64,000 nt of DNA, taken from positions 4,593 to 68,592 of the forward strand of contig JAAZAR010000008.1 in the NCBI GenBank assembly GCA_012514235.1, in the 5' to 3' direction. This stretch comes from Actinomycetota bacterium. GTDB lineage: Bacteria; Actinomycetota; Thermoleophilia; UBA2241. The notes under the pieces are model-generated. The model had not been told where the DNA came from and searched no databases. It was given only the letters and a program-made list of their open reading frames with translations. Positions 6,000 through 63,437 of this stretch are shown here, one piece after another (the first letter of the stretch is position 1; every line of letters starts with the position of its first letter). A program made the position numbers and the translations under genes.

Positions 6000-6000
6000 A

Positions 6001-9823: not shown

Positions 9824-9845
9824 CCGGCGGCCCCAGCGGCGAGAC

Positions 9846-9948
9846 GGCGCCGGCCCGCAAGTGCCGCTCCGGCGCGCGGACTACTGCACGGGAGCGGGAG
9901 TGATCGGGCGCCGGCCCGCAAGGGCCCCGCGGCGCACGGACTGATACA
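9846..9948 (+). repeat. Two tandem copies (period ~61 nt) of a GC-rich stem-loop element with a GCAA tetraloop, downstream of the PhzF-like gene
   Basis: GGCGCCGGCCCGCAAG is perfectly repeated at 9846 and 9907, each followed by GGCGC(G/A)CGGACT. Each copy can fold as GCGCC..GGCCC-GCAA-G(G/T)GCC..GGCGC. Confidence 0.6.
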
Positions 9949-10059
9949 ATCGACCCCCTGTAGCCGCGGCGCGGCCCTGGCCGCCGACGCGCCCGGAGGG
10001 GGCGCTCCGGCGCCTCCTGCCGCGCCGTGCTGTCGCCGTCTGAGCAGAAGGAGCTCGTC

Positions 10060-10503
10060 ATGAAGATCGCCGCCGGTGCCGACCACGGAGGGTACGCCCT
10101 CAAGCAGGCCGTCGTGCGCCGTCTCCGCTCGCTGGGTCACGAGGTCGTCGACGTGGGCACGGAGTCGGGCGAGAAGTCCGTCGACTACCCCGTGTACGGA
10201 CACAAGGTGGCTGAGCTGGTCGCCTCCGGTGAGGTCGAGCGAGGTCTGCTCGTCTGCGGCACGGGCATCGGCATCTGCATGTCCGCGAACCGCCACAAGG
10301 GCGTGCGCGCCGCCGACTGCTTCACGCCATACCATGCCGAGATCACGCGCCGCCACAACGACTGCAACGTGCTGTGCCTCGGCGGCCGCCTGCTGAGCGA
10401 GGACGAGGCATGGGCGATCACCGAGGTGTGGCTCGAGACGCCGTTCGAGGGCGGTCGTCACGAGGGCCGCGTGGCCCTGCTCGACGCGGAGGACCTCGCT
10501 TGA
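10060..10503 (+). CDS. rpiB: Ribose-5-phosphate isomerase B
   Basis: Motifs [30 protein letters not shown] and [17 protein letters not shown] lies 6 nt upstream of the ATG at 10060. Confidence 0.9.
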
Positions 10504-44870: not shown

Positions 44871-44996
44871 GCCCCGCGCGCCCGGCCCGGCGGGCGCGCG
44901 GGGCACCGTGCGTTGCCAGATCTGACAGCACCGGGCCGCGTCGGCTTGAGGAGGAACGGGCAGGCTGTAAACTGCCGATGCTCCCGGGAGGTCTTC

Positions 44997-46205
44997 GTGC
45001 GCTCGTCGTGGCTGCACACCGTCATCGCTCCGCTGGCCGTGGCCTATGCGGTCGCCGCGTTCCTCGCGCCGCTCGAGGTGATGGAAGTGCTCGGCGTGCC
45101 GTTCGTCGTGGCCGGCGCCTACGTCGCCGGCATGCGGGGCGGGCTCGTCTCCGGCCTCTGGGCGGCCGTCGTCACCGGCGCCGCCTTTCTCCTGACGCAA
45201 GCGGAGTACGCCGCCTCCTACGTGGCGACGGCGGCCGGCTACATCGTCATCGGCGTGCTGGTCGGCCTCGCCGTGGACAACTTCGCCGGACAGCGCAAGC
45301 GGCTGCAGGAGGCCGTCGAGGCGGCGCAACTCGCCCGCAGGCAGCTGGAGGTGAGCCAGCGACGATACCGGCTGCTCTTCGAGCAGAGCGCCGACCCCGT
45401 GTATCTGCACGGCCTGGACCACGACGGCGAGCCTACGCGGTTCATCTCCGTGAACGACGCGACCTGCACGCTGCTCGGCTACACGCGCGAGGAGTTGCTC
45501 GGACTCACGCCGCGCGCGATCGACGCATCGCCCAAGCCCGGCCAGCTGCGCCGGATGATGCACGTGCTCCTCCAGGAGGGACAGGTGAGGTACGAGGGCG
45601 TGCGGCGCACGCGCGACGGCGAGCTCGTCCCGGTGGAGATCAGCTCGAGTCTTTGCTACGTGGACGGGGAGCCGATCGTGCTGACTATCTCCCGTGACAC
45701 CCGGGAGCGGCAGGAGGAGGTGCGGCGCCTGCAGGAACTCACCTTGCGCGACGAACTCACCGGCCTCTTCAACCGGCGCGGCCTCGACGTGATGCTGCCG
45801 GAGCAGGCCAAGCGAGCCAAGCGGTCGGGGCACCCGGTCATCGTCATGTACGGCGACATCGACGGGTTCAAGGACCTGAACGACACGTACGGCCACGACA
45901 AGGGCGATGCTGTGCTCGTGGCCGTGGCGTCGGCCTTGCGCGCGACCTTCCGGGAGACCGACCTGATCGCGCGCCTCGGCGGCGACGAGTTCTGCGTGGT
46001 CGCCGAGGACATCGACGCGGCGCGGCTCACCGGCCGCCTCGAGGGTGCGATGGCGTCCGTCAGCCGCGAGCTCGGGCTGCCGGTCGCGATGAGCCACGGC
46101 GAGGTCCTCTCCGACTGGCAGGGGCTGGAAGAAGCCGCGACCCTGCTGGCGCGGGCCGACGCGCGCATGTACCAGTTCAAGCAGGCGCGGCGCCGGGCCC
46201 GCTGA
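44997..46205 (+). CDS. Membrane-associated PAS-GGDEF diguanylate cyclase
   Basis: N-terminal TM helices, a PAS-like region (YRLLFEQSADPVYLHG..), and a GGDEF domain (RLGGDEFCVV, with RxxD upstream). The GTG at 44997 follows a GGGAGG RBS. The ORF is open from the TTG at 44913. Confidence 0.85.
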   Translation: MRSSWLHTVIAPLAVAYAVAAFLAPLEVMEVLGVPFVVAGAYVAGMRGGLVSGLWAAVVTGAAFLLTQAEYAASYVATAAGYIVIGVLVGLAVDNFAGQRKRLQEAVEAAQLARRQLEVSQRRYRLLFEQSADPVYLHGLDHDGEPTRFISVNDATCTLLGYTREELLGLTPRAIDASPKPGQLRRMMHVLLQEGQVRYEGVRRTRDGELVPVEISSSLCYVDGEPIVLTISRDTRERQEEVRRLQELTLRDELTGLFNRRGLDVMLPEQAKRAKRSGHPVIVMYGDIDGFKDLNDTYGHDKGDAVLVAVASALRATFRETDLIARLGGDEFCVVAEDIDAARLTGRLEGAMASVSRELGLPVAMSHGEVLSDWQGLEEAATLLARADARMYQFKQARRRAR

Positions 46206-48302: not shown

Positions 48303-48378
48303 GGGCGACTAGCTCAGTTGGGAGAGCGCCAGCTCGACAAGCTGGAGGTCGTTGGTTCAATTCCAACGTCGCCCACCA
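48303..48378 (+). tRNA. tRNA-Val (anticodon GAC), CCA encoded
   Basis: A manual cloverleaf folds cleanly. The acceptor stem is GGGCGAC/GTCGCCC and the D arm is GCTC-AGTTGGGA-GAGC. The anticodon arm is CCAGC-TCGACAA-GCTGG. The variable loop is AGGTC and the T arm is GTTGG-TTCAATT-CCAAC. The discriminator is A, followed by CCA. Confidence 0.85.
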
Positions 48379-48492: not shown

Positions 48493-49089
<597 letters not shown>

Positions 49090-49233: not shown

Positions 49234-49893
49234 TCACGAACGAGACGCGGCGATCGCCTCGCGGATGAGCCGCACGCCGCGTGAGGCGTCGTCCGCCCAG
49301 TGGTCGGCGCCGGTCCACTGCGAGGTGTGCTCGTCGACGATGCCGCCGCCGATGATGATGGGCACGCCGCGCAGCTCGTCCTCGGCGCGCACGGCGTCGA
49401 TGGTCGCCTTCATGCCGTCCGTCGCGATGGTGAGCAGTCCCGAGAGGCCGATGATGTCCGGCCGCAGTTCGGCCGCCTTGCGCACGATCTCGTCGGGCGG
49501 CACGTCGACGCCCAGGTCGTGGACGACGATCCCGTACGACCGCAGCATCATGTTGACGATGTTCTTGCCCAGGTCGTGGATGTCGCCGCGCACGGTCGCG
49601 ATGAGCACGCTGCCGTGTGTGGCGTCCTCCGTCTCGGGCGGCAGCAGCGGTCCCAGCGCGACCATGGCCTCGCGGAAGATCTCCCCAGCCATGATGAGGC
49701 CGGAGATGAAGTACTTGCCGGACTGGTAGTGCTCGCCGACCCAGCGCATGCCGAGCTGGCACTCCTCGATGATGGCGAGGGGATCGTCGCCGGCCGCGAT
49801 GCGGGCGTTGACCGCATCCAGCGCGCCCTGCTCGTCGAGCGCGGCGATGCGCGCCGCGAGCGACGCCGGGTCCAGGCTCTCGTACTCTGTCAT
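49234..49893 (-). CDS. Cobalamin-binding corrinoid protein (B12-binding_2 cap + B12-binding Rossmann domain), regulator-linked type (CP1)
   Basis: 219 aa with the His-on motif VRGDIHDLGKN, GLSGLL, and IIGGG. ATGA overlap with the GntR gene upstream. An AAGGAGGAG RBS lies inside the GntR 3' end. Confidence 0.85.
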   Translation of the reverse strand: MTEYESLDPASLAARIAALDEQGALDAVNARIAAGDDPLAIIEECQLGMRWVGEHYQSGKYFISGLIMAGEIFREAMVALGPLLPPETEDATHGSVLIATVRGDIHDLGKNIVNMMLRSYGIVVHDLGVDVPPDEIVRKAAELRPDIIGLSGLLTIATDGMKATIDAVRAEDELRGVPIIIGGGIVDEHTSQWTGADHWADDASRGVRLIREAIAASRS

Positions 49894-50675
49894 CGGCGTC
49901 TCCTCCTTGCGCCGGCCCTGCCCTCCGGTGCCGGCGCCCCGACGCTCGCGCGGAACGAGAACAGCTCACCCCGGGAGATGAAGCATCCCCAGCTCATCGG
50001 CTTCTCGTCGTAGCCGTAGAAGATGTGCTCCAGGACCCACGCCGCGGAACCGGCCGGCAGGCGCAGCCTGCCGGCCTCCTCCTCCGTGAGCACCGAAGCG
50101 TGCAGGATGAGCTCGCCGCGCTTGGGCCCCGAGCCCGCCCCGCCCTCGAACATGTCGCGGAGGGCGGTGACGTCGAGCTCGGATTCGATGGTAGGCCGGG
50201 TCGGATCGTAGATGAGCGACTCGCGGTGGTAGATGAGGGGCGTGTCGCCCCGCTGCAGGATGCGCCGTATGGACACCACGTGGGTGCCGTCCGGCACGCC
50301 GAGATTGGCGGCGGCGCGCGGTCCGGCAGGCAGGACGCGCGCCTCGACCACCCTCGCCGTCACGTCCGGCTGGGACAGGATCTCGTGGAACTCGCTGAGG
50401 TCGAAGGTCGCCGTCGCGAGGCGCAGCGGCTGCACGAACGTGCCGCGGCCGCGCGTGGTGGTGACGGCTCCCTGGTCGAGCAGCATGCCGATAGCGCGCC
50501 GCACCGTCATGGGGCTCACGTCGTAGGCGGCGCAGAGCTCGGACTCGGTGGGCAGCTGGTCGCCCGCCTGGTACTGGCCGCTGGCGATGGCTCCGCGCAG
50601 GATGTTCACCAGCTGGATGTACGCCGGTTCATAGGAAGAACGGTCGATCCCGCGCCCCTGTGGGATGGTCGCCAT
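49890..50675 (-). CDS. GntR-family (HutC subfamily, UTRA effector domain) transcriptional regulator (GntR1)
   Basis: A winged-HTH region (LPTESELCAAYDVSPMTVRRAIGMLLDQGAVTTTRGRGTFV) and a UTRA-like C-terminal half. The start is the ATG at 50675; the ORF is open to 50741. Confidence 0.85.
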   Translation of the reverse strand: MATIPQGRGIDRSSYEPAYIQLVNILRGAIASGQYQAGDQLPTESELCAAYDVSPMTVRRAIGMLLDQGAVTTTRGRGTFVQPLRLATATFDLSEFHEILSQPDVTARVVEARVLPAGPRAAANLGVPDGTHVVSIRRILQRGDTPLIYHRESLIYDPTRPTIESELDVTALRDMFEGGAGSGPKRGELILHASVLTEEEAGRLRLPAGSAAWVLEHIFYGYDEKPMSWGCFISRGELFSFRASVGAPAPEGRAGARRRRR

Positions 50676-50741: not shown

Positions 50742-50774
50742 TTGCCTTCGACAAAATATCTATACATTATGTCC
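50742..50774 (+). promoter_or_regulatory. Candidate promoter/operator in the GntR1-module A divergent region (TTGCCT..; shared motif GACAAAATATCTATACATTATGT)
   Basis: This is an AT-rich island in ~70% GC DNA. The motif at 50750-50774 recurs at 52826-52850. Confidence 0.5.
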
Positions 50775-50820: not shown

Positions 50821-51456
50821 ATGTCGAAGGAGCTGACGAACGCCATCGTCGGCATGGACGAGGCGGAGGCCATGCGTCTCGTCGACGAGATGCTCGACGC
50901 GGGCGCCGACCCGGCTGACGTGCTGGAGGAGGCCAAGGCCGCGATGACCGTGCTCGGCGAGAAGTTCGAGTGCGAGGAGGCTTTCATCCCGGAACTCATC
51001 ATGGGCGGCGAGATCATGAAGGGCATCGCCGACGAGCTCAAGCCCCACATCACGGGTGGGTCGACGGCGCAGAAGCGCGGCACGGTCGTGCTCGGCACCG
51101 TGGCCGGCGATATCCACGACATCGGCAAGGACGTGGTCGTCCTCATGCTCGACGTCAACGGGTACGACGTGCACGACCTGGGCATCGACGTCCCGGTCGA
51201 GCAGTTCGTCGAGGCCGTCAAGGAGCTCAAGCCGCAGGTGGTGGGTCTCTCCGGCCTGCTCACCCTGGCGTTCGACTCCATGAAGGCCACCATCGACGGC
51301 ATCGCGGCCGCCGGCCTGCGCGACCAGGTGAAGGTCATGATCGGCGGCTCGCCGGTGGACGAGCAGGTCTGCGCGTACACCGGCGCCGACGGCTGGGGCC
51401 GGGATGCGGCAGCCGCGGTGCGCATGGTCGCCGAGTGGACCGGGAGCGCGGCATGA
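50821..51456 (+). CDS. Cobalamin-binding corrinoid protein, methyltransferase-linked type (CP2)
   Basis: 211 aa with the cap-domain motif EAFIPELIMGGEIM and the His-on motif VAGDIHDIGKD, plus GLSGLL. A GGGAGG RBS is present. Confidence 0.88.
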   Translation: MSKELTNAIVGMDEAEAMRLVDEMLDAGADPADVLEEAKAAMTVLGEKFECEEAFIPELIMGGEIMKGIADELKPHITGGSTAQKRGTVVLGTVAGDIHDIGKDVVVLMLDVNGYDVHDLGIDVPVEQFVEAVKELKPQVVGLSGLLTLAFDSMKATIDGIAAAGLRDQVKVMIGGSPVDEQVCAYTGADGWGRDAAAAVRMVAEWTGSAA

Positions 51457-52709
51457 CGGCCGCGCCCGAGGAGCTCTATGCGGAGCGCGAGCGGCGCTTC
51501 AACGACGCGGTGGCGCTGAAGGGGACGGACGTCATCCCCGTCATGCCGCTGACGGTGCACAACTTCCCGACTCGCCTCAAGGGCATCTCGAACAAGGTCG
51601 CGGGCTACGATCACGAGGCCCGCTGGCAGGCCACCAAGGAGGCCACCCTGCGGTTCGGCTGGAACTTCGCGCCGACCAACGACGTGCTCGCCTCCGACTT
51701 CTTCGCCTCCTTCGGCTCCAAGCAGATGATGTGGGCCGGGGAAGAGGGGGGTCTCGCCGACGACGCCCCGCATCAGTGGGTCGAGGACGAGTACGTCAAG
51801 GCGGACGAGCTCGAGGAGTTCATCGCCGATCCCAACGGGTTCACGTTCACGAGGATCTTCCCGCGCATGGGGAGCAGGCTGGAGGGCCTCGGGCAGGTCC
51901 CGTTGCCGCCGCTGTACTGGTTCTCCAACGCCTACTACCTGCAGGTGCTCGGCAACATGCTGGGCATCCCGCCGGTCCGCGAGGCGCTGCGTGCCTTCCT
52001 CGACATGGCGGACGCGCAGGCGAAGACCAACGCGGCGAACGCCAGGTACCTCCAGGAGATGAAGGATCTCGGCTATCCGCCCACCTGGGCGGCCGCGATC
52101 ATGCCCGCGTTCGACGTGTGCTCCGACACGCTGCGGAGCCTGCGCGGCAGCACACTCGACATGTTCCGGCAGCCCGACACGCTCCTCAAAGCGATCGACG
52201 TCATGCAGGAGGCGACCCTCGGGCTGGTGCACGCGGCCTTCGCGGTCACCGGCGTGCCACGCCAGTTCATCCCCATGCACAAGGGTGCGGCGGGCTTCAT
52301 GAGCAACGAGCAGTACGCCAGGTTCTACTGGCCGACCTTCAAGGCCCTCATCGAGGAGTGCATCGCGGCCGGCATCACGCCGGTCCCGCTGTTCGAGGGC
52401 GACTACACGCCGCGCCTCGAGTTCCTGGCGGAGCTGCCGCCGGGCAAGGTCGCGGCGCACTTCGACCGCGTCGACCGCAAGAAGTTCAAGGAGGTGTGCG
52501 GCGACGTGCTGTGCTTCTGGGGCAACGTCCCGGCTTCGCTGCTCGTCACCGGGACGCCGCAGCAGGTCAAGGACGACGTCAAGGAGCTCATCGACCTGTT
52601 CGGCGAGACCGGGCTCATCATCGACGGCCCGGGCACGATCCCCGACCAGGCGAAGCCGGAGAACGTCGAGGCGCTGGCCGAGGCCGTCGAGGAGTACGGC
52701 CGGCGTTGA
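51453..52709 (+). CDS. URO-D (uroporphyrinogen decarboxylase)-fold, MtaA/CmuA/O-demethylase-MT-I-like putative substrate:corrinoid methyltransferase (MT-A)
   Basis: 418 aa. The segment FIPMHKGAAGFMSNEQYARFYWPTFKALI..PLFEGDY..HFD aligns by eye to the URO-D family core (lFDSWAG.LS...F.eF..Py.k.i..il.kG....D). ATGA overlap with CP2. Confidence 0.7.
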   Translation: MTAAPEELYAERERRFNDAVALKGTDVIPVMPLTVHNFPTRLKGISNKVAGYDHEARWQATKEATLRFGWNFAPTNDVLASDFFASFGSKQMMWAGEEGGLADDAPHQWVEDEYVKADELEEFIADPNGFTFTRIFPRMGSRLEGLGQVPLPPLYWFSNAYYLQVLGNMLGIPPVREALRAFLDMADAQAKTNAANARYLQEMKDLGYPPTWAAAIMPAFDVCSDTLRSLRGSTLDMFRQPDTLLKAIDVMQEATLGLVHAAFAVTGVPRQFIPMHKGAAGFMSNEQYARFYWPTFKALIEECIAAGITPVPLFEGDYTPRLEFLAELPPGKVAAHFDRVDRKKFKEVCGDVLCFWGNVPASLLVTGTPQQVKDDVKELIDLFGETGLIIDGPGTIPDQAKPENVEALAEAVEEYGRR

Positions 52710-52734
52710 CGCGCGGCGTTGACGCACGTCGCGA

Positions 52735-52787
52735 GCCGGCCGACGAAGTGTCCGTCGGCCGGTTCGTCCCGCCACGCGGAACGAACC
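52735..52787 (+). terminator. Two adjacent hairpins after MT-A, the second followed by a T-rich tract
   Basis: Hairpin 1 is GCCGGCCGACG-7 nt-CGTCGGCCGG (52735-52762). Hairpin 2 is GGTTCGTCCCGC-cac-GCGGAACGAACC (52761-52787), followed by GCTCCGCTCTTTG. Confidence 0.5.
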
Positions 52788-52812
52788 GCTCCGCTCTTTG
52801 ATACGCTGACGG

Positions 52813-52850
52813 TTGACAGGACTTTGACAGAATATCTATATATATGTGCT
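52813..52850 (+). promoter_or_regulatory. Promoter (TTGACA-18 nt-TATATA) with the shared operator-like motif GACAGAATATCTATATATATGT, upstream of the ABC transporter genes
   Basis: The -35 TTGACA is at 52813-52818 and the -10 TATATA at 52837-52842. The motif at 52826-52850 matches 50750-50774 (shared core GACA-AATATCTATA-AT). Confidence 0.55.
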
Positions 52851-52912
52851 GCTCACCAGACATGGGGTCGATCGGAAGGCCCCGCAACGTCCACCGGGAC
52901 AAAGGGGAGACT

Positions 52913-54157
52913 ATGAGACGTTTCAAGCAGACCTTCGGCATGGGGCTCGCCGTGCTGCTCCTGCTGAGCATCATGCTCGCGGGCGGCGTGCTGGCCGCCG
53001 GGTGCGGGAACGACGACGGCGCCGACGGCGAGAGCGGCGGTGAGCTCATCATCGGCGTCGACGCCTCCATGAGCGGTCCGCTGGCCGGTTTCGGCGCGTA
53101 CCAGAAGTGGGCCATCGACAAGGCCGTCGCCGAGATCAACGATGCCGGCGGTCTGGACGTCGGCGGCGAGAAGATGACCGTCAAGACGATCCTCTACGAC
53201 AACAAGAGCGACCCGAACGTCGCCTCGAGCAACGTCGACACGCTCATCAACAAGGACGGCGCGATCGCCATCATCGGCCCGGTGACCCCGGCCGTCGGCA
53301 ACGCCGCCGCCCTTGCCGCCGAGAAGAACGGCATCCCCTACCTCGAGACCGGCAACCCGATCGAGCCCTTCATCGCCGTGAAGGCCGACTCCGGCGGCTG
53401 GAAGTACGCGTTCAACTTCTTCGTGCTCGCCCCGCCGGTGGCCGAGAACGCGTTCAAGTTCCCGGTCGACCTGGGCCTCAAGACCAACATGAAGACCTTC
53501 ATCAGCGTCGACAACAGCCCCGACGGTCCCGTGTTCGGCCCGGCCTGCAAGGCCGCTGCCGAAGCCAACGGCTGGGAAGTCGTCGGCATGGAGACGCACC
53601 CTGCCTCGCAGACCGAGTTCAACAGCCTCATCTCGAAGATGAAGGCGTCGGGAGCCGACTACGTCTACGTGCTCGGCGACACCCCGTCCTTCGTCGCTCT
53701 CAGCAAGCAGATGGCTGCCGCCAACTACGCTCCGAAGATCCTCTACTACCAGCGTGGCGCGCAGCTCCAGGAGTTCGCGGACGCAGCCGGCGATCTCGCC
53801 AACGGCGTGACGCTCGAGGCCTACTGGCTGCCCACCATGCCGTACCCGGGTGCCGCCGAGCTCGGCGCCGCCTACGAGGCCGACACCGGCAAGAAGGCCG
53901 GCCAGATCCTCGGTCCGGAGTACGCCGCGGCCCAGATCATGATGCAGGCCATCAGCAGGGCCGGCAGCACCGAGCCCCAGGCCATCGTGGACGCCCTCGC
54001 GGCGACGGACGACACGTTCGTATGCGGCCCCGTCAAGTTCGACGAGAACCACACCTCCGCGCTGAACCTGGTCGTCGCCCAGTGGCAGGACGGCACGTCG
54101 CAGCAGATCTGGCCCGAGGGTGAGGGCGCGGTCCCGGCTATCTTCCCGATGCCCTGA
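52913..54157 (+). CDS. ABC transporter substrate-binding lipoprotein, LivJ/LivK (Peripla_BP_6) family
   Basis: A lipobox (LAAGC) follows the signal peptide. The family-typical N-terminal segment is IGVDASMSGPLAGFGAYQKWAIDKAVAEINDAGG. A GGGGAG RBS is present. Confidence 0.88.
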   Translation: MRRFKQTFGMGLAVLLLLSIMLAGGVLAAGCGNDDGADGESGGELIIGVDASMSGPLAGFGAYQKWAIDKAVAEINDAGGLDVGGEKMTVKTILYDNKSDPNVASSNVDTLINKDGAIAIIGPVTPAVGNAAALAAEKNGIPYLETGNPIEPFIAVKADSGGWKYAFNFFVLAPPVAENAFKFPVDLGLKTNMKTFISVDNSPDGPVFGPACKAAAEANGWEVVGMETHPASQTEFNSLISKMKASGADYVYVLGDTPSFVALSKQMAAANYAPKILYYQRGAQLQEFADAAGDLANGVTLEAYWLPTMPYPGAAELGAAYEADTGKKAGQILGPEYAAAQIMMQAISRAGSTEPQAIVDALAATDDTFVCGPVKFDENHTSALNLVVAQWQDGTSQQIWPEGEGAVPAIFPMP

Positions 54158-54203: not shown

Positions 54204-55082
54204 ATGCCCAGCAGTACCGAACTGATCACCGCGATCCTCAGCGGGCTGGGCATCGGCGGCCTCTTCGCCGTTGCCGCGCTGGGGCTCTCCCTGGTGTTCG
54301 GCGTCATGCGGCTCATCAACCTCGCCCACGGCGAGCTCATCGTCCTGGGCGCCTATGTGGCCTACAGTCTCACGCAGTGGATCGGCATCGATCCCCTGCT
54401 GAGCATCGTCATCGTTGCGCCGGTGGTGGCTCTGGCCGCCTACCCGCTGCAGCGGTGGGGCCTCACCCCCGTGATGAGCAAGGGCGCCGAGGCGCCCTTG
54501 CTCATCACCTTCGGGGTGTCCATCGTCCTGCAGAACCTGTTCATCCTCATCTACACGCCCGACGTGCGCTCCCTGAGCGCGTCGTACTCGCAGGCCAACT
54601 TCACGATCGGCGGCATCACCATCCCCGTCATCTACGTCATCACGCTGGTGGTGGGCATCGTGCTGCTGTACGCGACACACCTGGTCGTGACCCGTACGGG
54701 CTTCGGCCGGCAGATCAGAGCCGGGTCCGAGGACCCGGCGGCTGCCGGCATGATGGGCGTCAACGTCAGGCGCATGTACGCCTGGACCTTCGCCGTCGCG
54801 GCCGGGTCGGCCGCCATCGCCGGCATCCTGGTCGCCCTGGCCTTCTCCTTCGCGCCCTCCGCCGGCACCGCGTACCTCATCACCGGGTTCGCCGTGGTCG
54901 TGCTCGGCGGCATCGGCAGCATCAAGGGCACGCTCATCGGCGGCCTCCTGCTCGGCGTGATCCAGAGCATCGGCGCCGCCTTTGTGGGCGACGGCTGGCG
55001 CGTCTTCATCGGCTGCGCCGTCGTCCTCGTCGTCCTGTCCATCCGGCCGCAAGGCCTCTTCGGCGCCACGGAGGGCAACTGA
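54204..55082 (+). CDS. ABC transporter permease, LivH type
   Basis: 292 aa, polytopic, with the LivH-like N-terminus GLFAVAALGLSLVFGVMRLINLAHGE. Confidence 0.88.
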   Translation: MPSSTELITAILSGLGIGGLFAVAALGLSLVFGVMRLINLAHGELIVLGAYVAYSLTQWIGIDPLLSIVIVAPVVALAAYPLQRWGLTPVMSKGAEAPLLITFGVSIVLQNLFILIYTPDVRSLSASYSQANFTIGGITIPVIYVITLVVGIVLLYATHLVVTRTGFGRQIRAGSEDPAAAGMMGVNVRRMYAWTFAVAAGSAAIAGILVALAFSFAPSAGTAYLITGFAVVVLGGIGSIKGTLIGGLLLGVIQSIGAAFVGDGWRVFIGCAVVLVVLSIRPQGLFGATEGN

Positions 55083-57679
55083 TGCAGACCGTCCTTCGCT
55101 CTCTCCGTTCGCCGAGGGTCCTTGCGGCGCTGGCCACCGCGATCGCGGCCGTCGTCGTGCTGGCGATCCTCCCGCCGTTCATCGGCCGCTACTACTCCCT
55201 CGTCATCTACGAGATGCTCGTGCTGGTCGCCCTCGCGCAGGCGTGGAACATGCTCGCCGGCTACGGCGGCCTGGTCTCGCTGGCGCCGGCCGTCTCCGTG
55301 GGCGTCGGCGCCTATACGGCCGCGGTGATCGGCGGCCACCTCGGCTGGCCGCTGCCGCTGCTGATCGTCTCCGGCGGTATCGCCGCGGGGCTGTTCGCGG
55401 TCGTCTTCAGCGTGCCGATGTTCCGCTTCCGCGGCCTCTACTTCGCCATCGCCACCCTCGTGCTGGCGCAGGCCGTGTACGTGTTCATGGTCAACTGGAA
55501 CGGCCTCGGCGGCACCACCGGCCTGTTCCTCACCGAGTACACGTCGCAGATCACGACGCTGTATCCCTACGCGCTCGCGCTCGCCGTCATCTCGACCGCG
55601 GTCATCTGGGTGGTGCTCAGGACCCGCCTGGGCCTGAGTCTCCGCGCCCTGCGCGACGACGAGGACACGGCGCAGGAGATCGGCGTCTCCACGTTCCGCA
55701 CCAAGCTCTGGGTGTGGGTGCTCTCGTCGTTCCTCATCGGCATGGTCGGCGCGCTCGAGGCACTGCGCCTCAGCGTCGTCACGCCTGACGGGGCGCTCTC
55801 CATCACGTGGACCATCAACATCGTGACGACGACGATCGTCGGCGGTGTCGGCACCATCATCGGCCCCGCCATCGGCGGCGTGTTCACCGTGTGGCTGGCG
55901 GAGAGCCTCGCCGACTACCCCGAGCTGCACGTGCTCATCACGGGACTCATCGTCATCCTGATCATCCGCTTCGCCCCGTTCGGCATCTGGGGCGTGGTCA
56001 AGCTGATCGCCGGCAGGTTCATCAAACGGAAGACGACGGAGGCCGGCGAGGAAGCCCAGATCGAGCTGACCGCCGAGCGGAGGGCCGCGTCATCGGCGGC
56101 GGCCGCGCAGATCGCCGGCGCGTTGAACGACGCGCCGGCGGAGGCCGCGGCCGCGGGCCCCGTGCTGCTCAGCTGCCAGGGCCTGACCAAGCGCTACGGC
56201 GACGTGGTCGCCGCCTCGGACATCACGCTCGAGGTCCGCAAGGGCGAGGTGCTCGGCATCATCGGGCCGAACGGGGCCGGCAAGAGCACGCTCGTCGGCA
56301 TGCTGAGCGGTGCCACGCACGCCACCTCCGGCACCGTCGTCTTCGACGGTCAGGACGTCTCGCACATGCCGTCCTTCAAGCGGGCGCGTCTGGGCATCGG
56401 CCGCACGCACCAGATCCCCAGGCCGTTCCGTCAGATGACGGTGCTCGAGAACCTGATGGTCGCCCGCCACTACGGGGCTCAGTCGTCGAGCGGCGGCGGG
56501 GTGTACGCCGAGTGCGAGACCATCCTGCACGAGCTCGGCCTGTGGGACGTCGCCCACGTCAAGGCCGAGGACCTGACGCTGCTGCAGCTCAAGCGGCTCG
56601 AGCTGGCGCGCACGCTGGCGCTCGAGCCCCGCATCCTGCTCATGGACGAGATCGGGGCGGGCCTCGTCGAGACCGAGGTCCTCGAGCTCATCGAGGTCAT
56701 CAAGGCCCTGCGACATCGCGTCGAGGCCATCGTCATCATCGAGCACATCATGGACGTCATCACCGAGTGCAGCGACCGGGTCGCCGTCCTGGACTTCGGC
56801 AAGCTCATCGCCGACGGCCCGGTGGCGCAGGTGCTGGCGGAGCCGGATGTCGTCTCCTGCTACCTGGGCACCGGGTGTGAGGAGCTCGTGCCGCGCGTGA
56901 CGCCTCACACGGTCAAGGAGGATGCCCGTCCGATCCTCTCGCTCGACGGCGTGTCGGCCGGCTACGGGCACTTCAAGGCGCTCTCGAACATCACCTTCGA
57001 CGTACACCAGGGCGAGGTCGTGGCCCTGCTCGGCACCAACGGCGCCGGCAAGACGACCGCGGCACGCGTCATCAGCGGCATGATCCCGGTCTCGACGGGC
57101 CGCATCACGCTGAGCGGCAAGGACATGACCGGGCTGCAGTCGCACGATGTGGCCAGACTGGGCCTGGCGCACTGCATGGAGGGCCGGCACATCTTCGCCG
57201 ACCTCACCGTGCACGAGAACCTCGTGCTGGCCGGGTCGGTCAAGAAGGCCGGCCTGCAGGACCGGCTCGCACGCGTGTACGACCTGTTCGAGGTGCTCGC
57301 CGAGCGCCGCGACAAGTCGGGCATGCAGCTCTCGGGCGGCCAGCAGCAGATGCTGGCCATCGGCCGCGCCCTGATGGCCGACCCCGACGTCATCATCTTC
57401 GACGAGATCGCGCTCGGCCTCGCGCCGGCGACGGTCGACCGTCTCTACGACACCCTCGTCAAGATCCGCGACGAGGGCACCACGATGATCCTCATCGAGC
57501 AGAACATGGAGCGGGGACTCAGCCTCGCAGACCGCGTGTTCGTGCTCGAGAAGGGCACGATCGCGCTGGGCGGCACTCCGGACGAACTGCGCGGAGACCC
57601 TCGCCTCGAGGCGCTCTACATGGGCGAGGCGCAGGCGGAAGTACCGACCGCGGCTGGCACCGCAAGGGAGGAACAGTGA
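55082..57679 (+). CDS. Fused ABC transporter protein: LivM-type permease + LivG-type ATPase + LivF-type ATPase in one 865-aa ORF
   Basis: There is no stop codon between the three domains. The permease (YSLVIYEMLVLVALAQAWNMLAGYGGLVSLA) runs to ~56000. ATPase 1 has Walker A GPNGAGKST (~56264) and Walker B ILLMDE. ATPase 2 has Walker A GTNGAGKTT (~57031), the signature LSGGQQQ, and Walker B IIFDE. Confidence 0.85.
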   Translation: MQTVLRSLRSPRVLAALATAIAAVVVLAILPPFIGRYYSLVIYEMLVLVALAQAWNMLAGYGGLVSLAPAVSVGVGAYTAAVIGGHLGWPLPLLIVSGGIAAGLFAVVFSVPMFRFRGLYFAIATLVLAQAVYVFMVNWNGLGGTTGLFLTEYTSQITTLYPYALALAVISTAVIWVVLRTRLGLSLRALRDDEDTAQEIGVSTFRTKLWVWVLSSFLIGMVGALEALRLSVVTPDGALSITWTINIVTTTIVGGVGTIIGPAIGGVFTVWLAESLADYPELHVLITGLIVILIIRFAPFGIWGVVKLIAGRFIKRKTTEAGEEAQIELTAERRAASSAAAAQIAGALNDAPAEAAAAGPVLLSCQGLTKRYGDVVAASDITLEVRKGEVLGIIGPNGAGKSTLVGMLSGATHATSGTVVFDGQDVSHMPSFKRARLGIGRTHQIPRPFRQMTVLENLMVARHYGAQSSSGGGVYAECETILHELGLWDVAHVKAEDLTLLQLKRLELARTLALEPRILLMDEIGAGLVETEVLELIEVIKALRHRVEAIVIIEHIMDVITECSDRVAVLDFGKLIADGPVAQVLAEPDVVSCYLGTGCEELVPRVTPHTVKEDARPILSLDGVSAGYGHFKALSNITFDVHQGEVVALLGTNGAGKTTAARVISGMIPVSTGRITLSGKDMTGLQSHDVARLGLAHCMEGRHIFADLTVHENLVLAGSVKKAGLQDRLARVYDLFEVLAERRDKSGMQLSGGQQQMLAIGRALMADPDVIIFDEIALGLAPATVDRLYDTLVKIRDEGTTMILIEQNMERGLSLADRVFVLEKGTIALGGTPDELRGDPRLEALYMGEAQAEVPTAAGTAREEQ

Positions 57680-58308
57680 CACAGGAGCTGACCCAGGCCA
57701 TCGTCGAGCTGCGTGAGGCCGACGCCCTGGCCATGGTCGACCGGAAGCTGGCGGAGGGGGTCGACCCCGTCGCCATCCTGGCCGAATGCAAGACGGCCAT
57801 GGACACGATCGGGGACAAGTTCGCCGCCGGCGAGGCCTTCATCCCCGAACTCATCATGGCCGGCGAGATCATGTCCGGCGTCTCGGCCAGGCTGAAGCCG
57901 CATCTGCAGTCGACGCCCGCGGACGACGACAAGCTCGGCGTCGTGGTCATCGGCACCGTGCAGGGCGACATCCACGACATCGGCAAGGACATCGTGGTCA
58001 CGATGCTCGACATCGCCGGCTTCGACGTGGTCGACCTGGGCGTGGACGTCAAGGTGGACGAGTTCGTCACCGCCGCACGGGAGAAGGGCGCGAAGATCAT
58101 CGCCATGAGCTGCCTGCTCACGAGCGCCATCGACTCGATGAAGAAGGTCGTCGCGGCCGCTCGCGAGGCCGGGCTGAACGACACGAAGCTCATGATCGGT
58201 GGCGCGCCGATCACGGAGCAGGTCGTCGCGTACACTGGAGCCGACGGCTACGGCAAGGACGCCGTGGAGGCCGTCGAGCTCGCCAGACAGTGGATCGGGG
58301 AGGCGTGA
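57676..58308 (+). CDS. Cobalamin-binding corrinoid protein, methyltransferase-linked type (CP3)
   Basis: 210 aa with EAFIPELIMAGEIM, VQGDIHDIGKD and MSCLLT. GTGA overlap with the fused ABC gene. Confidence 0.88.
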   Translation: MTQELTQAIVELREADALAMVDRKLAEGVDPVAILAECKTAMDTIGDKFAAGEAFIPELIMAGEIMSGVSARLKPHLQSTPADDDKLGVVVIGTVQGDIHDIGKDIVVTMLDIAGFDVVDLGVDVKVDEFVTAAREKGAKIIAMSCLLTSAIDSMKKVVAAAREAGLNDTKLMIGGAPITEQVVAYTGADGYGKDAVEAVELARQWIGEA

Positions 58309-59654
58309 TGGCGTTCACTGAAGACTGGAAGGACCTTGACGCGCGCCAGCGGTACGAGGCGCGCATGGACGCCTGGGCGAACCCGGCGGTCGAGTTCGAG
58401 TCGGACGCGGTCAGACAGCAGTATCAGGACCGCGTCCAGCTCTTCCGCGACGCCGTGGAGCTCAAGAAGCCGGCGCGCGTGCCGATCGCGCCGTGGATGA
58501 GCCTCTTCCCGGGTCTCTCCCAAGGGCTCACCGCCAAGGAGACCTACTACGACTACGCCAAGCTGGCCGATGCCTGGATGAAGTTCCACGCCGAGTACCG
58601 GCAGGACGTGCTGGCTTTCTCCATCAACATCGTGCCGGTGCACATCTACGACGCCCTGGACTACAGGCTCTACGACTGGCCGGGGCACGGCGTGGGTGAG
58701 GACTCGGGCTACCAGTACAACGAGGCCGAGTACATGAAGGCCGACGAGTACGACCTGCTCATCGCCGACCCCTCCGGCTACTGGCAGCGGTTCTACCTGC
58801 CGCGGGTCATCGGAGCGTTTGAGCCGTGGGCCACCCTCGACCCCTTCACCGATCTGGTCGAGGGTCCCACCGTCGGCCCGTTCTTCATCCCGTTCGGCAC
58901 GCCGCCGGTCCAGGAGATGCTCAAGAAGATGATCGACGCCGGCAATGCGGCCATGGAGTGGATCCAGAACTTCTCGGCGATGGACGCAAAGGCGACGGCG
59001 AAGTACGGCCTTCCGGGTTTCGCCGGCGGCGTGACCAAGGCCCCGTACGACATCCTCGGCGACACGCTGCGCGGCACGCGCGGCCTCATGCTCGACGTGT
59101 TCCGTCAGCCGGACAAGGTCCTCGAGGCGTGCGAGCGCCTGGTGCCGCTCGCCATCGACTGGGCGGTGCGCAGCAACGACAAGACGCGGCACCCGTTCGT
59201 CTTCATCCCGCTGCACAAGGGCGCCGACGGGTTCCTCAGCGACGCCGACTTCCGCACGTTCTACTGGCCGACGCTCAAGAAGGTCCTGCAGGGCCTGATC
59301 GACGAGGGTCTCGTGCCGCTGTGCTTCGCCGAGGGCGCGTACAACGACCGCCTCGAGGCGATCCACGACGAGGAGATCCCGGCCGGCAGGATGATCTGGA
59401 TGTTCGACGCCACCAACATGAGCGAGGCGAAGAGGCACCTCGGCGGCTACCAGTGCATCGGCGGCAACGTGCCGGGCGCACTGCTCACCACCGGGACCGT
59501 GCAGGACATGGACGACTACGTGCGCCAGCTCATCGAGGACGTCGCCAGGGACGGCGGGTTCATCCTCGGCTCGGGCATCGTCATCGACGAGGCCAAGCCG
59601 GAGTGCGTCAAGCAGATGATCGAGGCGGGCCTCAAGTACGGCGCACAGGCCTGA
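58308..59654 (+). CDS. URO-D-fold putative substrate:corrinoid methyltransferase (MT-B)
   Basis: 448 aa and a close paralog of MT-C. It contains FIPLHKGADGFLSDADFRTFYWPTLKKVL..CFAEGAY..MFD. TGATG overlap with CP3. Confidence 0.7.
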   Translation: MAFTEDWKDLDARQRYEARMDAWANPAVEFESDAVRQQYQDRVQLFRDAVELKKPARVPIAPWMSLFPGLSQGLTAKETYYDYAKLADAWMKFHAEYRQDVLAFSINIVPVHIYDALDYRLYDWPGHGVGEDSGYQYNEAEYMKADEYDLLIADPSGYWQRFYLPRVIGAFEPWATLDPFTDLVEGPTVGPFFIPFGTPPVQEMLKKMIDAGNAAMEWIQNFSAMDAKATAKYGLPGFAGGVTKAPYDILGDTLRGTRGLMLDVFRQPDKVLEACERLVPLAIDWAVRSNDKTRHPFVFIPLHKGADGFLSDADFRTFYWPTLKKVLQGLIDEGLVPLCFAEGAYNDRLEAIHDEEIPAGRMIWMFDATNMSEAKRHLGGYQCIGGNVPGALLTTGTVQDMDDYVRQLIEDVARDGGFILGSGIVIDEAKPECVKQMIEAGLKYGAQA

Positions 59655-59823: not shown

Positions 59824-60498
59824 TCAGGCGATGAGCGCGCGCACGAAGTCCAAACCGCGCGCCGCGTCGACGCACCAGCCGTCGGCGCCCAGGCGGTCGC
59901 TCACCATCCCGTCGACGGCGGCGCCGCCCAGCACGACCGGCAGGTGCGGGTGCCAGGCGGAGGACTGCCTCCGCACGAGGTCGATGGTCTCGCGCAGCGC
60001 CTCGTAGCCGGACGTGAGCAGGCACGAGAGACCCAGCACGTCCGGCCGCTCGCGCTCGACTGCCTCGGCGACGGCCTCCGGGGTCACGTTGACGCCGAGG
60101 TCCACCATCGTGAAGCCCTCGGCGTCGAGCAGCGCGACCACGATGTTCTTGCCGATGTCGTGGATGTCGCCGCGCACGGTGGCGATGACCATCTTCGCGC
60201 CGCCGGAGCCGGCCGCGGCGCCGCCGCCGGTCGCCGTGCCGGCCTGGGCGGCGCCGATGCGAGGGTAGAGCAGCTCGGCGGCTTCACGGATGATCTCGCC
60301 GGCCATGATGAGGGCCGAGATGAAGTAGGTGCCCTCCTCGTACAGCCGGCCCACCCGCTCCATACCGGTGCGACACTCGCCGACGAGCACGGCCGGATCC
60401 TCGCCCGCGCCGAGCCGCTCGCGGATCTGCGCGAGCGCCCCGCGCTCGTCCATGCGCACGATGAGCTCGTCGAGGCTGTCGCCGGGAGTGGTGCTCAC
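59824..60498 (-). CDS. Cobalamin-binding corrinoid protein, regulator-linked type (CP4)
   Basis: 224 aa from the GTG at 60498, which follows an AGGAAGGAG RBS. It contains GTYFISALIMAGEIIREA, VRGDIHDIGKN and LSCLLT. It lies 5 nt downstream of the GntR2 stop. Confidence 0.85.
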   Translation of the reverse strand: MSTTPGDSLDELIVRMDERGALAQIRERLGAGEDPAVLVGECRTGMERVGRLYEEGTYFISALIMAGEIIREAAELLYPRIGAAQAGTATGGGAAAGSGGAKMVIATVRGDIHDIGKNIVVALLDAEGFTMVDLGVNVTPEAVAEAVERERPDVLGLSCLLTSGYEALRETIDLVRRQSSAWHPHLPVVLGGAAVDGMVSDRLGADGWCVDAARGLDFVRALIA

Positions 60499-60503
60499 GA
60501 GGA

Positions 60504-61259
60504 TCAGACTCCTTCCTGGGGGCCGGGGATGCCGACCGTGGTGGTGAAGCTGAGCCGGTCGGCGCGGCCGACGAAGCGGCCCCAGCTCTCCGGCCGGTCG
60601 TCGAAGTCGAAGAAGAGGTGCTCGAGCACCCAGGCGAGCGTGCCGGGCTGCTCTCCGAGCTGGGACGCCTCCGTCTCGGTGAAGGCGGAGGCGTGCAGTG
60701 TGAGGCGGCCGAACTTGAGGTCCGAGCCGTGGGCGCCGGAGAAGAGGTCCTGCAGCGCCGTGGTGGCGAGCTCGGCCTCGACCAGCGGGCGGGCCGGATC
60801 GAAGACGAGGTACTCGCTGTGGTAGAAGACCGGCTCGTCGCCGCGCAGGAGCAGTCGCTTGATGGAGATGACGCGCTCGCCCTCCTCGCGCGCCAGCTTC
60901 TCGGCCACGCGCGGACCGGCCGAGACGATGCGCGCCTCGAGGATGCGCGCTTCGACGTCCGGGCTGGCCAGGTAGCGCATGAGGTCGCCGAGGTCGAAGC
61001 TGGCGGCGGCCAGCTGCGGGGGCTTCACGAACGTGCCGCGGCCGTGCTCCGTGACTACGACGTCCGCGCGGACCAGCTCGCCGATGGCCCGGCGCACGGT
61101 CATCGGGCTGACCGAGAACGCGGCGCAGAGCTCCGCCTCCGACGGCAGCCGGTCGCCGGGCCGGTACGCGCCGCCGGCGATGCGCTCGCGGATGGTGCGC
61201 GCGAGCTGCGCGTAGGGAGGCTCGAACGAGTCTCGGTCGATCGGCGGGCGGTCCTTCAC
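60504..61259 (-). CDS. GntR-family (HutC/UTRA) transcriptional regulator, paralog of GntR1 (GntR2)
   Basis: 251 aa with LPSEAELCAAFSVSPMTVRRAIGELVRADVVVTEHGRGTFV. The UTRA half is colinear with GntR1 (..AWVLEH(I/L)F..). Confidence 0.87.
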   Translation of the reverse strand: MKDRPPIDRDSFEPPYAQLARTIRERIAGGAYRPGDRLPSEAELCAAFSVSPMTVRRAIGELVRADVVVTEHGRGTFVKPPQLAAASFDLGDLMRYLASPDVEARILEARIVSAGPRVAEKLAREEGERVISIKRLLLRGDEPVFYHSEYLVFDPARPLVEAELATTALQDLFSGAHGSDLKFGRLTLHASAFTETEASQLGEQPGTLAWVLEHLFFDFDDRPESWGRFVGRADRLSFTTTVGIPGPQEGV

Positions 61260-61464: not shown

Positions 61465-62100
61465 ATGTCATCAGCGCTCAAAGAAGCGGTGATCGAGCTG
61501 CGCGAAGACGACGCGCTGCGGATCACGAGAGAGGCACTGCAAGGGGGCGCCGACCCGCTCGACATCGTCGCCGCCTGCCGCGAGGCGATGGACGTGATCG
61601 GGCAGCGGTTCGCCGACGGCGAGGCGTTCATCCCCGAGCTCATCATGGCGGGCGAGATCATGAGCGGCATCACCGCGGAGCTGAAGCCGTACCTCAAGGC
61701 TGAGGGCTCCGGCGGCAAGCTCGGCACGGTCGTGATGTGCACCGTCCAGGGCGACATCCACGACATCGGCAAGGACATCGTCGTGACCATGCTGGACATC
61801 GCGGGCTTCGAGGTCGTCGACCTTGGCGTGGACGTGCCGGTCGCCAAGGTCGTGGACAGCGTGCGCGAGAGCGGAGCGCAGGTGGTCGGGCTGAGCGGCC
61901 TGCTCACCGTCGCCTTCGACTCGATGAAGGCCACGGTGGCCGCGCTCGACGAAGCCGGTCTGCGCGGCCAGGTCAAGGTCATGCTTGGCGGCGCCCCAGT
62001 GACGGACGCCGTGGTGGAGTACGCCGGGGCCGACGCATGGGGCAAGGACGCGGTCGACGCCGTCGAACTCGCCAGGCAGTGGACGGGAGGTGCGTCATGA
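61465..62100 (+). CDS. Cobalamin-binding corrinoid protein, methyltransferase-linked type (CP5)
   Basis: 211 aa with EAFIPELIMAGEIM, VQGDIHDIGKD and LSGLLT. A GGGAGG RBS is present. Confidence 0.88.
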   Translation: MSSALKEAVIELREDDALRITREALQGGADPLDIVAACREAMDVIGQRFADGEAFIPELIMAGEIMSGITAELKPYLKAEGSGGKLGTVVMCTVQGDIHDIGKDIVVTMLDIAGFEVVDLGVDVPVAKVVDSVRESGAQVVGLSGLLTVAFDSMKATVAALDEAGLRGQVKVMLGGAPVTDAVVEYAGADAWGKDAVDAVELARQWTGGAS

Positions 62101-63437
62101 CCCTGCCCGACAACTGGAGCGAACTCACCCCCGACCAGCGGCTGCAGTGGCGGCTGGACGCCTGGCAGAACATCCCCATCGAGTTCGCCTCTCCCGAGGT
62201 CGCCCAGGAGTATCGCGACCGCGTGCAGTTGTACCGCGACGTGCTCGCCGGCAAGAAGCCTGCGACGGTACCGATCGCTCCCTGGATCGGCCTGTTGCCC
62301 TTCCGCTTCTATGGGCACACCGCCAAGCAGGCCTACTACGACTATGAGATCTTCAAGGAAGACTGGTTCCGCTTCCATGAGGAGACCAGGCCCGACGGCA
62401 TCGGACTCACGTTGGGCATCGTGCCGGGCAAGCTGTTCGACATCCTCGACTACCGCCTCTACACGTGGCCGGGCCACGGCACGCCCGACGACACCTGCTA
62501 CCAGTACAGCGAGCAGGAGTGGATGAAGGGCGACGAGTACGCGGCGCTGATCCAGGACCCGGGCTCGTACTGGCAGCGGTCGTACCTGCCGCGCGTGTTC
62601 GGCGCCATGGAGCCGTTCTCCATGCTGCCGCCGTGGACGGACCTCGTGGAGATCCCCTTCACGGCGCCGTTCTTCGCCGGGTTCTCGGCGCCGCCCGTCA
62701 AGGAGATGCTGCAGAAGCTGGCCGAGGCCGGCGACGCGGCCATGGAGTGGCTGCAGGCGGCGATGGCCGCGGACGGCAGGGTCATGGCCACCCTCGGCAT
62801 CCCGCAGACGGCCGGCGGGGCGACCAAGGCGCCGTACGACACCCTCGGCGACACCATGCGCGGCACGCGCGGGCTCATGCTCGACAAGTTCCGCCAGCCG
62901 GAGAACGTCAAGGCAGCCATGGAGAGGCTCGTGCCGCAGTCGGTGGACTGGGCCAGGCGCTCCAACGACATGACCGGCAACCCCATCGTCTTCATCCCGA
63001 TCCACAAGGGCGCCGACGGGTTCATGAGCGACGCCGACTTCAAGGAGCTGTATTGGCCGACCTTCAAGGCCGTGCTGCTCGGCCTGATCGAAGAGGGTCT
63101 GGTGCCGTGGGTGTTCGTCGAGGGCTCGTACAACGAGCGCCTCGAGGTGATCGCCGACGAGGAGATCCCGGCGCATCGCATGATCTGGATGTTCGACGCC
63201 ACCGACATGCAGCGCGCCAAGGAGATCGTCGGCAAGCGGCAGTGCATCGGCGGCAACGTGCCGGCGGCGCTGTTCGCCATGGGCACCCCGGAGGAGATGG
63301 ACGCCTACGTCAAGGGCCTGCTCGAGACGACGGCTCAGGACGGCGGCTTCATCCTCAGCAGCGGGATCGTCCTGGATGAGGCCGACCCGGCCGCGTACAA
63401 GGCGTTCATCGAGGCGGGACGCAAGTACGGCAGGTGA
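62097..63437 (+). CDS. URO-D-fold putative substrate:corrinoid methyltransferase (MT-C)
   Basis: 446 aa with FIPIHKGADGFMSDADFKELYWPTFKAVL..VFVEGSY..MFD. ATGA overlap with CP5. Confidence 0.7.
   Translation: MTLPDNWSELTPDQRLQWRLDAWQNIPIEFASPEVAQEYRDRVQLYRDVLAGKKPATVPIAPWIGLLPFRFYGHTAKQAYYDYEIFKEDWFRFHEETRPDGIGLTLGIVPGKLFDILDYRLYTWPGHGTPDDTCYQYSEQEWMKGDEYAALIQDPGSYWQRSYLPRVFGAMEPFSMLPPWTDLVEIPFTAPFFAGFSAPPVKEMLQKLAEAGDAAMEWLQAAMAADGRVMATLGIPQTAGGATKAPYDTLGDTMRGTRGLMLDKFRQPENVKAAMERLVPQSVDWARRSNDMTGNPIVFIPIHKGADGFMSDADFKELYWPTFKAVLLGLIEEGLVPWVFVEGSYNERLEVIADEEIPAHRMIWMFDATDMQRAKEIVGKRQCIGGNVPAALFAMGTPEEMDAYVKGLLETTAQDGGFILSSGIVLDEADPAAYKAFIEAGRKYGR

Follow-up and report, generated by a model that had tools for sequence, protein, structure and literature searches.

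A HutC-type GntR regulator paired with its own corrinoid protein beside methyltransferase operons: a candidate cobalamin-state sensing module

Two GntR-corrinoid protein pairs in a Thermoleophilia contig

The window analyzed here, a 64,000-nucleotide stretch of contig JAAZAR010000008.1 from an Actinomycetota (Thermoleophilia) assembly, contains two gene pairs in which a HutC-type GntR regulator is followed by a separately encoded, B12-binding corrinoid protein (CP). This GntR-CP pair is a conserved module, present in two copies in the window and placed divergent from or beside corrinoid-dependent methyltransferase operons. We refer to the CP of the module as the regulator-linked corrinoid protein (CP_R).

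In pair 1, the regulator GntR1 (49890..50675, minus strand; 261 amino acids, ATG at 50675) combines a winged-helix GntR domain (Pfam, E = 5e-19) with a UTRA domain (1e-15), and its closest solved structures are YvoA/NagR and DasR. The translated product of the next gene, CP1 (49234..49893, minus strand; 219 amino acids), consists of a cap domain (B12-binding_2, PF02607) and a Rossmann B12-binding domain (PF02310) (Pfam, E = 6e-24). Its His-on motif is GDIHDLGKN, and its closest solved structure is 4JGI (150 bits), with MetH next. As the initial annotation had described, the GntR1 stop and the CP1 start share an ATGA at 49890-49893, and the ribosome-binding site of CP1 lies inside the 3' end of the regulator gene: the Shine-Dalgarno sequence AAGGAGGAG (49900..49908, minus strand), read from the sequence, is found within the last GntR1 codons, 6 nt ahead of the CP1 ATG. 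At 49894-49911 (minus strand), this same site encodes the Arg-rich C-terminal tail of GntR1 (…GARRRRR), a tail that probably results from the ribosome-binding site being embedded there. Comparable Arg-rich tails are seen in GntR1 orthologs.

Pair 2 consists of GntR2 (60504..61259, minus strand), a HutC-type regulator with the Pfam GntR and UTRA domains that is 53% identical to GntR1, and CP4 (59824..60498, minus strand; B12-binding_2 and B12-binding, E = 2e-24), which belongs to the same clade as CP1. A second pair of the same kind had been annotated at 59824-61259, and an adjacent GntR-CP pair is indeed present there, but the gene overlap is absent. Instead, CP4 starts with a GTG that lies 5 nt past the GntR2 TGA and is preceded by GGAAGGAG.

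The genes facing the two pairs lie on the plus strand. Opposite GntR1 is the methyltransferase-coupled CP2 (50821..51456), which has an ATGA overlap with MTa (51453..52709), a URO-D-fold methyltransferase of the methyltransferase I (MT I) type (Pfam URO-D, 5.5e-14). Further along are genes for a Liv-type periplasmic substrate-binding protein (52844..54157; Peripla_BP_6, 1.5e-50; the real start is possibly downstream, at the Met of MRRFKQ), a LivH-type permease (54204..55082; BPD_transp_2, 5e-35) and an 865-residue open reading frame (55082..57679) in which a LivM-type permease (BPD_transp_2) is continuous with two ABC ATPase domains, of the LivG and LivF types. This long frame has no internal stop codon, and its counterparts are separate genes in a related locus, L093. 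Next come CP3 (57676..58308), assigned to the methyltransferase-coupled proteins by its motifs and joined by start/stop overlaps to LivF and MTb, and MTb itself (58308..59654), a URO-D-fold MT I whose closest match among solved structures is CdmB, an MT I for chloromethane (9RUI, E = 9e-30). Opposite GntR2, the methyltransferase-coupled CP5 (61465..62100) has an ATGA overlap with the URO-D-fold MT I MTc (62097..63437; Pfam URO-D, 7.6e-15). The window thus holds three MT I enzymes with three coupled CPs, and two GntR regulators with two additional CPs. These are exactly five CPs with the D-x-H-x-x-G motif, and all five keep the cobalamin-binding motifs.

Two sets of motifs divide the five proteins, and those quoted in the initial annotation proved exact on recheck. 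CP1 and CP4 have G(K/T)YFIS(G/A)LIMAGEI(F/I)REA in the cap and RGDIHD(L/I)GKN around the histidine; CP2, CP3 and CP5 have EAFIPELIM(G/A)GEIM and (A/Q)GDIHDIGKD. The His-on signature (D-x-H-x-x-G, S-x-L and G-G) appears in CP1 and CP4 as GDIHD(L/I)G, SGLL/SCLL and GG, which are invariant in alignments. With this signature and a MetH-like cap, CP_R should, judging from its sequence, bind and protect methylcobalamin. The positions that separate CP1 and CP4 from the methyltransferase-coupled clade are S64 (Pro in that clade), G65 (Glu/Asp), R74, R50 and P178 (Lys).

Candidate operators were found for pair 1. A 24-nt imperfect palindrome, GACAAAATATCTATACATTATGTC (50750..50773), lies in the divergent intergenic region between GntR1 and CP2, and a second operator-like copy, GACAGAATATCTATATAT (52826..52843), lies ahead of the ABC transporter genes, past hairpins at 52732-52788. 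The sequence GACAnAATATCTATAnAT occurs in the window only at 50750-50767 and 52826-52843, with 0 matches expected by chance. A related sequence, ATGTATAGATAT, precedes GntR1-type genes by about 90 nt in the loci L001, L004, L092 and L093, and variants of it occur in modules from Chloroflexota and Syntrophorhabdales (L006, L011, L012, L014 and L045). The sites would fit a HutC-type operator serving the divergent promoters and the transporter operon. For GntR2, the operator candidate CCCTAGACCAGTAGGG was not significant.

A corrinoid protein clade that follows GntR genes

The initial annotation had raised the question of whether this CP subtype always occurs together with a GntR gene. A CP1-type alignment was run against a single genome for each GTDB species, after which the window proteins were compared with 80 loci by tblastn; further modules came from neighborhood look-ups of metagenomic homologs. 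In the 80 loci, every CP that best matches CP1 (at least 39% identity) is directly preceded by a GntR/UTRA gene of the same strand, and the metagenomic homologs show the same GntR-then-CP context. Among the related loci examined, a GntR/UTRA gene stands immediately upstream of the CP1/CP4-clade CP in 22 of 22 distinct modules. The hosts are Thermoleophilia, Anaerolineae/Chloroflexia (Chloroflexota), Syntrophomonadaceae, Syntrophorhabdales and Deltaproteobacteria, the cultured Desulfosarcina variabilis among them, and the GntR-CP order is kept across several phyla down to about 35-40% identity. At the junction, the two genes overlap by 1-8 nt in most modules, and the junction is no longer than about 28 nt in the others.

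In neighbor-joining trees, the CPs downstream of GntR genes, including CP1 and CP4, form one clade (bootstrap 60/100) with no methyltransferase-coupled CP inside it, and the carriers, including the O-demethylase protein CobDH, are placed outside. The gene order follows the same division. Carrier-type CPs directly adjoin a URO-D methyltransferase gene, usually on its upstream side, and a CP of the CP1/CP4 clade lies within a methyltransferase operon in none of the 22 modules. The key asymmetry is that the CP clade is never seen without GntR, whereas GntR relatives occur without a CP. The CP-less GntR/UTRA loci (L094, 1308-3998; L096, 709-2432; L087, 400-2306) have FTHFS (formate-THF ligase), FTCD_C or sulfotransferase genes as neighbors, and control of C1 and methyl metabolism may be a wider function of the GntR1-type subfamily.

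The CP of the module is usually not the only one at its locus. In 19 of the 22 modules, a second CP is coupled to a URO-D methyltransferase next door. Opposite the GntR-CP pair, L085/86 carries DUF1638, methyltransferase II (MT II), CP, MT I and RACo genes, and L039 carries MT II, porin, CP, MT I, porin and MFS transporter genes. CP lineages outside the clade also adjoin GntR, in either order, beside complete systems: L023 (GntR-CP-MT II-MT I-CP-MFS-RACo), L040/41 (in L040, MT II-CP-MT I-CP-GntR-RACo) and L050 (MT II-CP-MT I-GntR-CP-DUF1638-CobW). A full MT I/CP/MT II set is thus found besides the GntR-linked CP in L085, L039, L023, L040 and L050, with RACo in L085, L023 and L040. Because several modules hold the complete enzyme set, the GntR-linked copy in them is supernumerary. 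In addition, the pair is kept while its methyltransferase partner swaps: in L092, a GntR2/CP4-type pair faces a CP2/MTa-like operon, which in the window is faced by GntR1/CP1.

Several features of these loci concern the neighbors of the module. In L039, which is from D. variabilis, two Phenol_MetA_deg outer-membrane channel genes (5728-6549 and 9297-10184) are interleaved with MT II-CP-MT I, which suggests that this module, at least, acts on aromatic (methoxylated phenolic) compounds. In L008, only DUF1638 lies opposite the GntR-CP pair. DUF1638, often with a CobW-type GTPase, adjoins GntR-CP modules in L008 (5370-6101), L050 (10276-11608), L085 (4153-4815), L092 (5043-6379) and L095 (1-1022), and a natural DUF1638-CP fusion exists (P0387); DUF1638 may be a partner of corrinoid proteins. 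An unusual transporter-corrinoid fusion is encoded at L001 1-878, with a 715-residue product comprising B12-binding_2, B12-binding and an amino-acid permease. This gene adjoins split MttB-family genes and a TetR regulator.

The remainder of the window gives the setting of the two pairs. Its G+C content is 70%, its first 46 kb hold housekeeping genes, and close homologs carry Thermoleophilia annotation. A tblastn search of the window with the L085 proteins found no MT II, RACo or DUF1638, an Rfam scan of the window found no cobalamin riboswitch (only tRNA-Val matched), and a sigma-70 promoter scan returned nothing. NCBIfam has no specific family for any of the components. Downstream of the GntR-CP pair, the trpEGDCFBA operon is complete in the relatives L001, L092 and L093. 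L005 and the window retain just one gene there, for a trpG-like class-I glutamine amidotransferase (48493-49089 in the window), which is followed in the window by tRNA-Val (48303-48378) and a DEAD-box helicase gene. The trp remnant suggests local rearrangement. A PAS-GGDEF diguanylate cyclase gene (44913-46205, plus strand) between adenosine deaminase and DEAD-box helicase genes is unrelated to the GntR-CP finding.

Possible roles of the regulator-linked corrinoid protein

We hypothesize, with about even confidence, that the module is a HutC-type GntR repressor co-transcribed with a dedicated CP_R that would act as its accessory cobalamin-state sensor. In this model, GntR would bind the AT-rich HutC-like operator in the divergent promoter and the second copy before the transporter genes, and would repress both the catabolic operons and its own operon. 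The catabolic operons have a carrier CP of their own, translationally coupled to a URO-D-type MT I, and at pair 1 a Liv-type ABC importer as well. Being made together with the repressor, CP_R would be present before induction and could serve as the accessory sensor, and the state of its bound cobalamin would alter its action on GntR so that repression is relieved. The most likely signal would be methyl-Co(III) versus Co(I)/Co(II), with basal MT I determining the state in the presence of a methyl donor; holo versus apo protein, or the redox state, would be alternatives. We infer that GntR and CP_R make physical contact, and likewise what the signal is and in which direction it acts.

Since CP_R keeps a MetH-like cap and the His-on site, the state of its cobalamin is the most economical signal. 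Furthermore, a CP that would be made with the repressor, and so be there before induction, and that is surplus to a full catalytic set is more readily understood as an accessory sensor than as a carrier. A more specific version, in which the pathway's own MT I would methylate the sensor CP from an environmental donor, as an enzymatic proxy for the substrate, and the methyl-Co(III) form, unlike Co(I)/Co(II), would take the HutC-type GntR off its operator, is considerably less probable. The initial annotation had already suggested that CP1 and CP4 are cobalamin-state sensors. The linkage to GntR in all 22 modules and the supernumerary copy strengthen that suggestion, whereas the MetH-like motifs, the generic gene overlaps and the arrangement in L005, discussed below, do not.

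The motifs, in particular, lose their value as a sign of function. TV(R/K)GD(I/V)HD(L/I)GKNIV, GK(Y/M)F and a Pro ahead of the GG motif are found in E. coli MetH too, which carries IATVKGDVHDIGKNIV, GKMFLP and IPLLIGG, and the O-demethylase carrier CobDH (4JGI) has YFI (in YFIGD) and GKN. We therefore dropped the CP1/CP4 motifs as the mark of a non-catalytic sensor, as they are common to MetH and partly to CobDH.

Other observations also weigh against a sensory role. Tree support for the GntR-linked clade is moderate, CP_R evolves at about the rate of the carrier CPs, and the regulator-linked and carrier clades do not differ in net charge or pI. Start/stop overlaps of 4 nt or 1 nt also occur at CP2/MTa, LivF/CP3, CP3/MTb and CP5/MTc. 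Overlaps are thus generic in this locus, so translational coupling is not special to the GntR-CP pair and is no sign of partnership. Three GntR homologs that are 54-57% identical to GntR1 have no CP at all, which argues that the repressor family does not need one, and the conserved polar UTRA residues are common to GntR1 and one aligned CP-less homolog. Finally, we searched for fusions with a profile of a paired, linker-joined GntR+CP alignment and with phmmer, using P0241 as query against 1.84 billion representatives. No genuine GntR-CP fusion was found among the top matches of these searches of 5.8 billion and 1.84 billion proteins, and the long phmmer matches show that CPs are naturally fused to MT I, MT II or DUF1638.

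The search also returned apparent fusions that had to be discarded. The top profile matches, P0241 and P0242, are frameshift artifacts with scrambled UTRA ends, and P0224, P0228 and P0234 are likewise frameshift artifacts. Such artifact gene calls in public metagenomes, in which UTRA/GntR and B12-binding domains span the overlapping gene junction, could mislead surveys of domain architecture.

The strongest alternative, possible but less likely than a sensor, is that CP1 and CP4 carry methyl groups, in an ordinary or an auxiliary capacity. The pair would then be an autoregulated regulator gene plus one pathway gene, GntR would sense a small molecule through UTRA, and the extra CP would serve an MT I/MT II encoded elsewhere or give basal carrier capacity. 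HutC regulators are commonly co-transcribed with pathway genes. The cobalamin-binding and cap residues are all kept, and the match of the motifs to MetH and CobDH, the GntR homologs elsewhere without a CP, and the presence of CP-methyltransferase but no genuine GntR-CP fusions among the matches examined would all be expected of a carrier. In the syntenic relative L005, the divergent operon consists of MT I and an MFS transporter with no other CP within 11 kb, and there the GntR-linked CP may serve as the carrier. As the window itself has no MT II or RACo, some of the pathway is in any case encoded elsewhere. However, a carrier role does not account for a separate CP clade that always follows GntR and is never part of the methyltransferase operon next to it, for the extra copy in complete systems that already have a CP, or for a pair that is kept while its methyltransferase partners change.

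It is improbable, in our view, that CP_R handles the cofactor, storing cobalamin or acting as a chaperone and passing it to the carrier CPs, perhaps in concert with DUF1638 and CobW-type GTPases. The recurrence of DUF1638 next to the modules (L008, L050, L085, L092 and L095), alone or together with CobW, and the natural DUF1638-CP fusion P0387 would be in line with such a role. However, the strict position after GntR would be unexplained, and the CP part of P0387, which is 36% identical to the query, is without the full CP1/CP4 motif set. To our knowledge, there is also no precedent for a cap-plus-Rossmann CP as a chaperone, which counts against it.

A light sensor of the CarH/AerR kind, by which CP_R would make GntR light-responsive, is very improbable. 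It has on its side only the general precedent of B12-binding domains as photoreceptors, along with the photolability of methylcobalamin. The Wx9EH motif is absent: in CP1, W51 and E54-H55 are only 3 residues apart, and they are missing from CP4. CP1 has no NCBIfam CarH match, and the regulated genes would belong to methyl-transfer catabolism, not photoprotection. Moreover, Syntrophomonadaceae, Anaerolineae, Syntrophorhabdales and sulfate reducers are among the hosts, and these lineages are generally considered anaerobic. Light had been listed in the initial annotation among the possible signals, and we set it aside given the missing CarH motif, the lack of a MerR partner and these hosts. That the adjacency is a mere accident of operon packing with no functional link, as the generic start/stop overlaps of this high-GC genome could suggest, is effectively refuted by the recurrence of the order in 22 modules across several phyla and in independent CP lineages.

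Known systems and implications

In function, the closest precedents are AerR/PpaA and CarH/LitR. AerR/PpaA are stand-alone B12-binding antirepressors of purple bacteria that act on CrtJ/PpsR, and CP_R is proposed here to modulate a repressor encoded alongside it in a similar manner. The partner, however, is GntR/HutC instead of CrtJ/PpsR, and CP_R is a MetH/MtaC-like protein of the methyl-carrier type with a cap domain. Its neighbors are corrinoid methyltransferase and transporter genes rather than photosystem genes, and the likely signal would be not hydroxocobalamin produced by light but a methylation, cofactor or redox state. CarH/LitR likewise uses cobalamin on a helical-bundle plus Rossmann module to control a transcription factor, as is proposed for the GntR pair. 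In CarH/LitR, the MerR DNA-binding domain is fused to the sensor, whereas here the proteins are separate and CP1 and CP4 consist of only the two B12 domains. Neither CP1 nor CP4 has the Wx9EH motif that holds adenosylcobalamin.

In sequence, CP1 and CP4 resemble MtaC, MtbC, MttC, CobDH/Dhaf0720 (4JGI) and the B12 domain of MetH, with which they have both Pfam domains and the His-on motif in common. Unlike the CPs that are cognate to methyltransferases, they are not beside a same-strand methyltransferase gene, are always behind GntR, and form a separate clade. The regulators have the GntR winged helix and UTRA of the HutC-subfamily repressors (NagR/YvoA, DasR, PhnF and HutC), and the AT-rich candidate operator in the divergent promoter has a partial GT-N-TA-N-AC character, which would suit this subfamily. 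Known HutC-subfamily members respond to small molecules bound in UTRA, and we know of none with a described protein co-sensor.

The adjacent operons share with the O-demethylase and chloromethane (CdmBCA) systems a URO-D-fold MT I and a coupled CP, and the relatives add a pterin-binding MT II and RACo. A GntR plus second-CP pair is not part of the descriptions of corrinoid methyltransferase systems consulted here, in which the components are MT I, one CP and MT II and no regulator is named (PMC13222342, PMC3727330). The regulation of such systems is largely unexplored, according to a 2026 paper (PMC13222342). In Eubacterium, mttB genes are often near B12-binding proteins and GntR regulators (PMC9303578). 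A full-text literature search yielded no description of a regulatory pair of GntR and a stand-alone B12/corrinoid protein, in agreement with the initial annotation, which knew of none.

Corrinoid-dependent methyltransferase systems act in the O-demethylation of lignin-derived aromatics and on methylamines, quaternary amines and chloromethane. Such systems occur widely, both in gut bacteria and in anoxic carbon cycling, with dozens in single genomes. As it stands, our finding is a well-conserved genomic association, and the regulatory role, which rests on gene context, is partly supported. A conserved pair of a repressor and a dedicated B12 protein, standing beside these operons in several phyla, is a testable candidate for the missing layer of control. 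If the role holds true, protein-based cobalamin signaling would extend past light-sensing CarH/AerR to a new repressor family and possibly to a new signal, the methylation state. In the genomes of uncultured Thermoleophilia, Chloroflexota and Deltaproteobacteria, the pair would also mark loci at which methyl harvesting is regulated. If the methyl relay from MT I to the sensor CP is true as well, this would be signal transduction by cobalamin methylation, in which one repressor scaffold would report many chemically different methyl donors.

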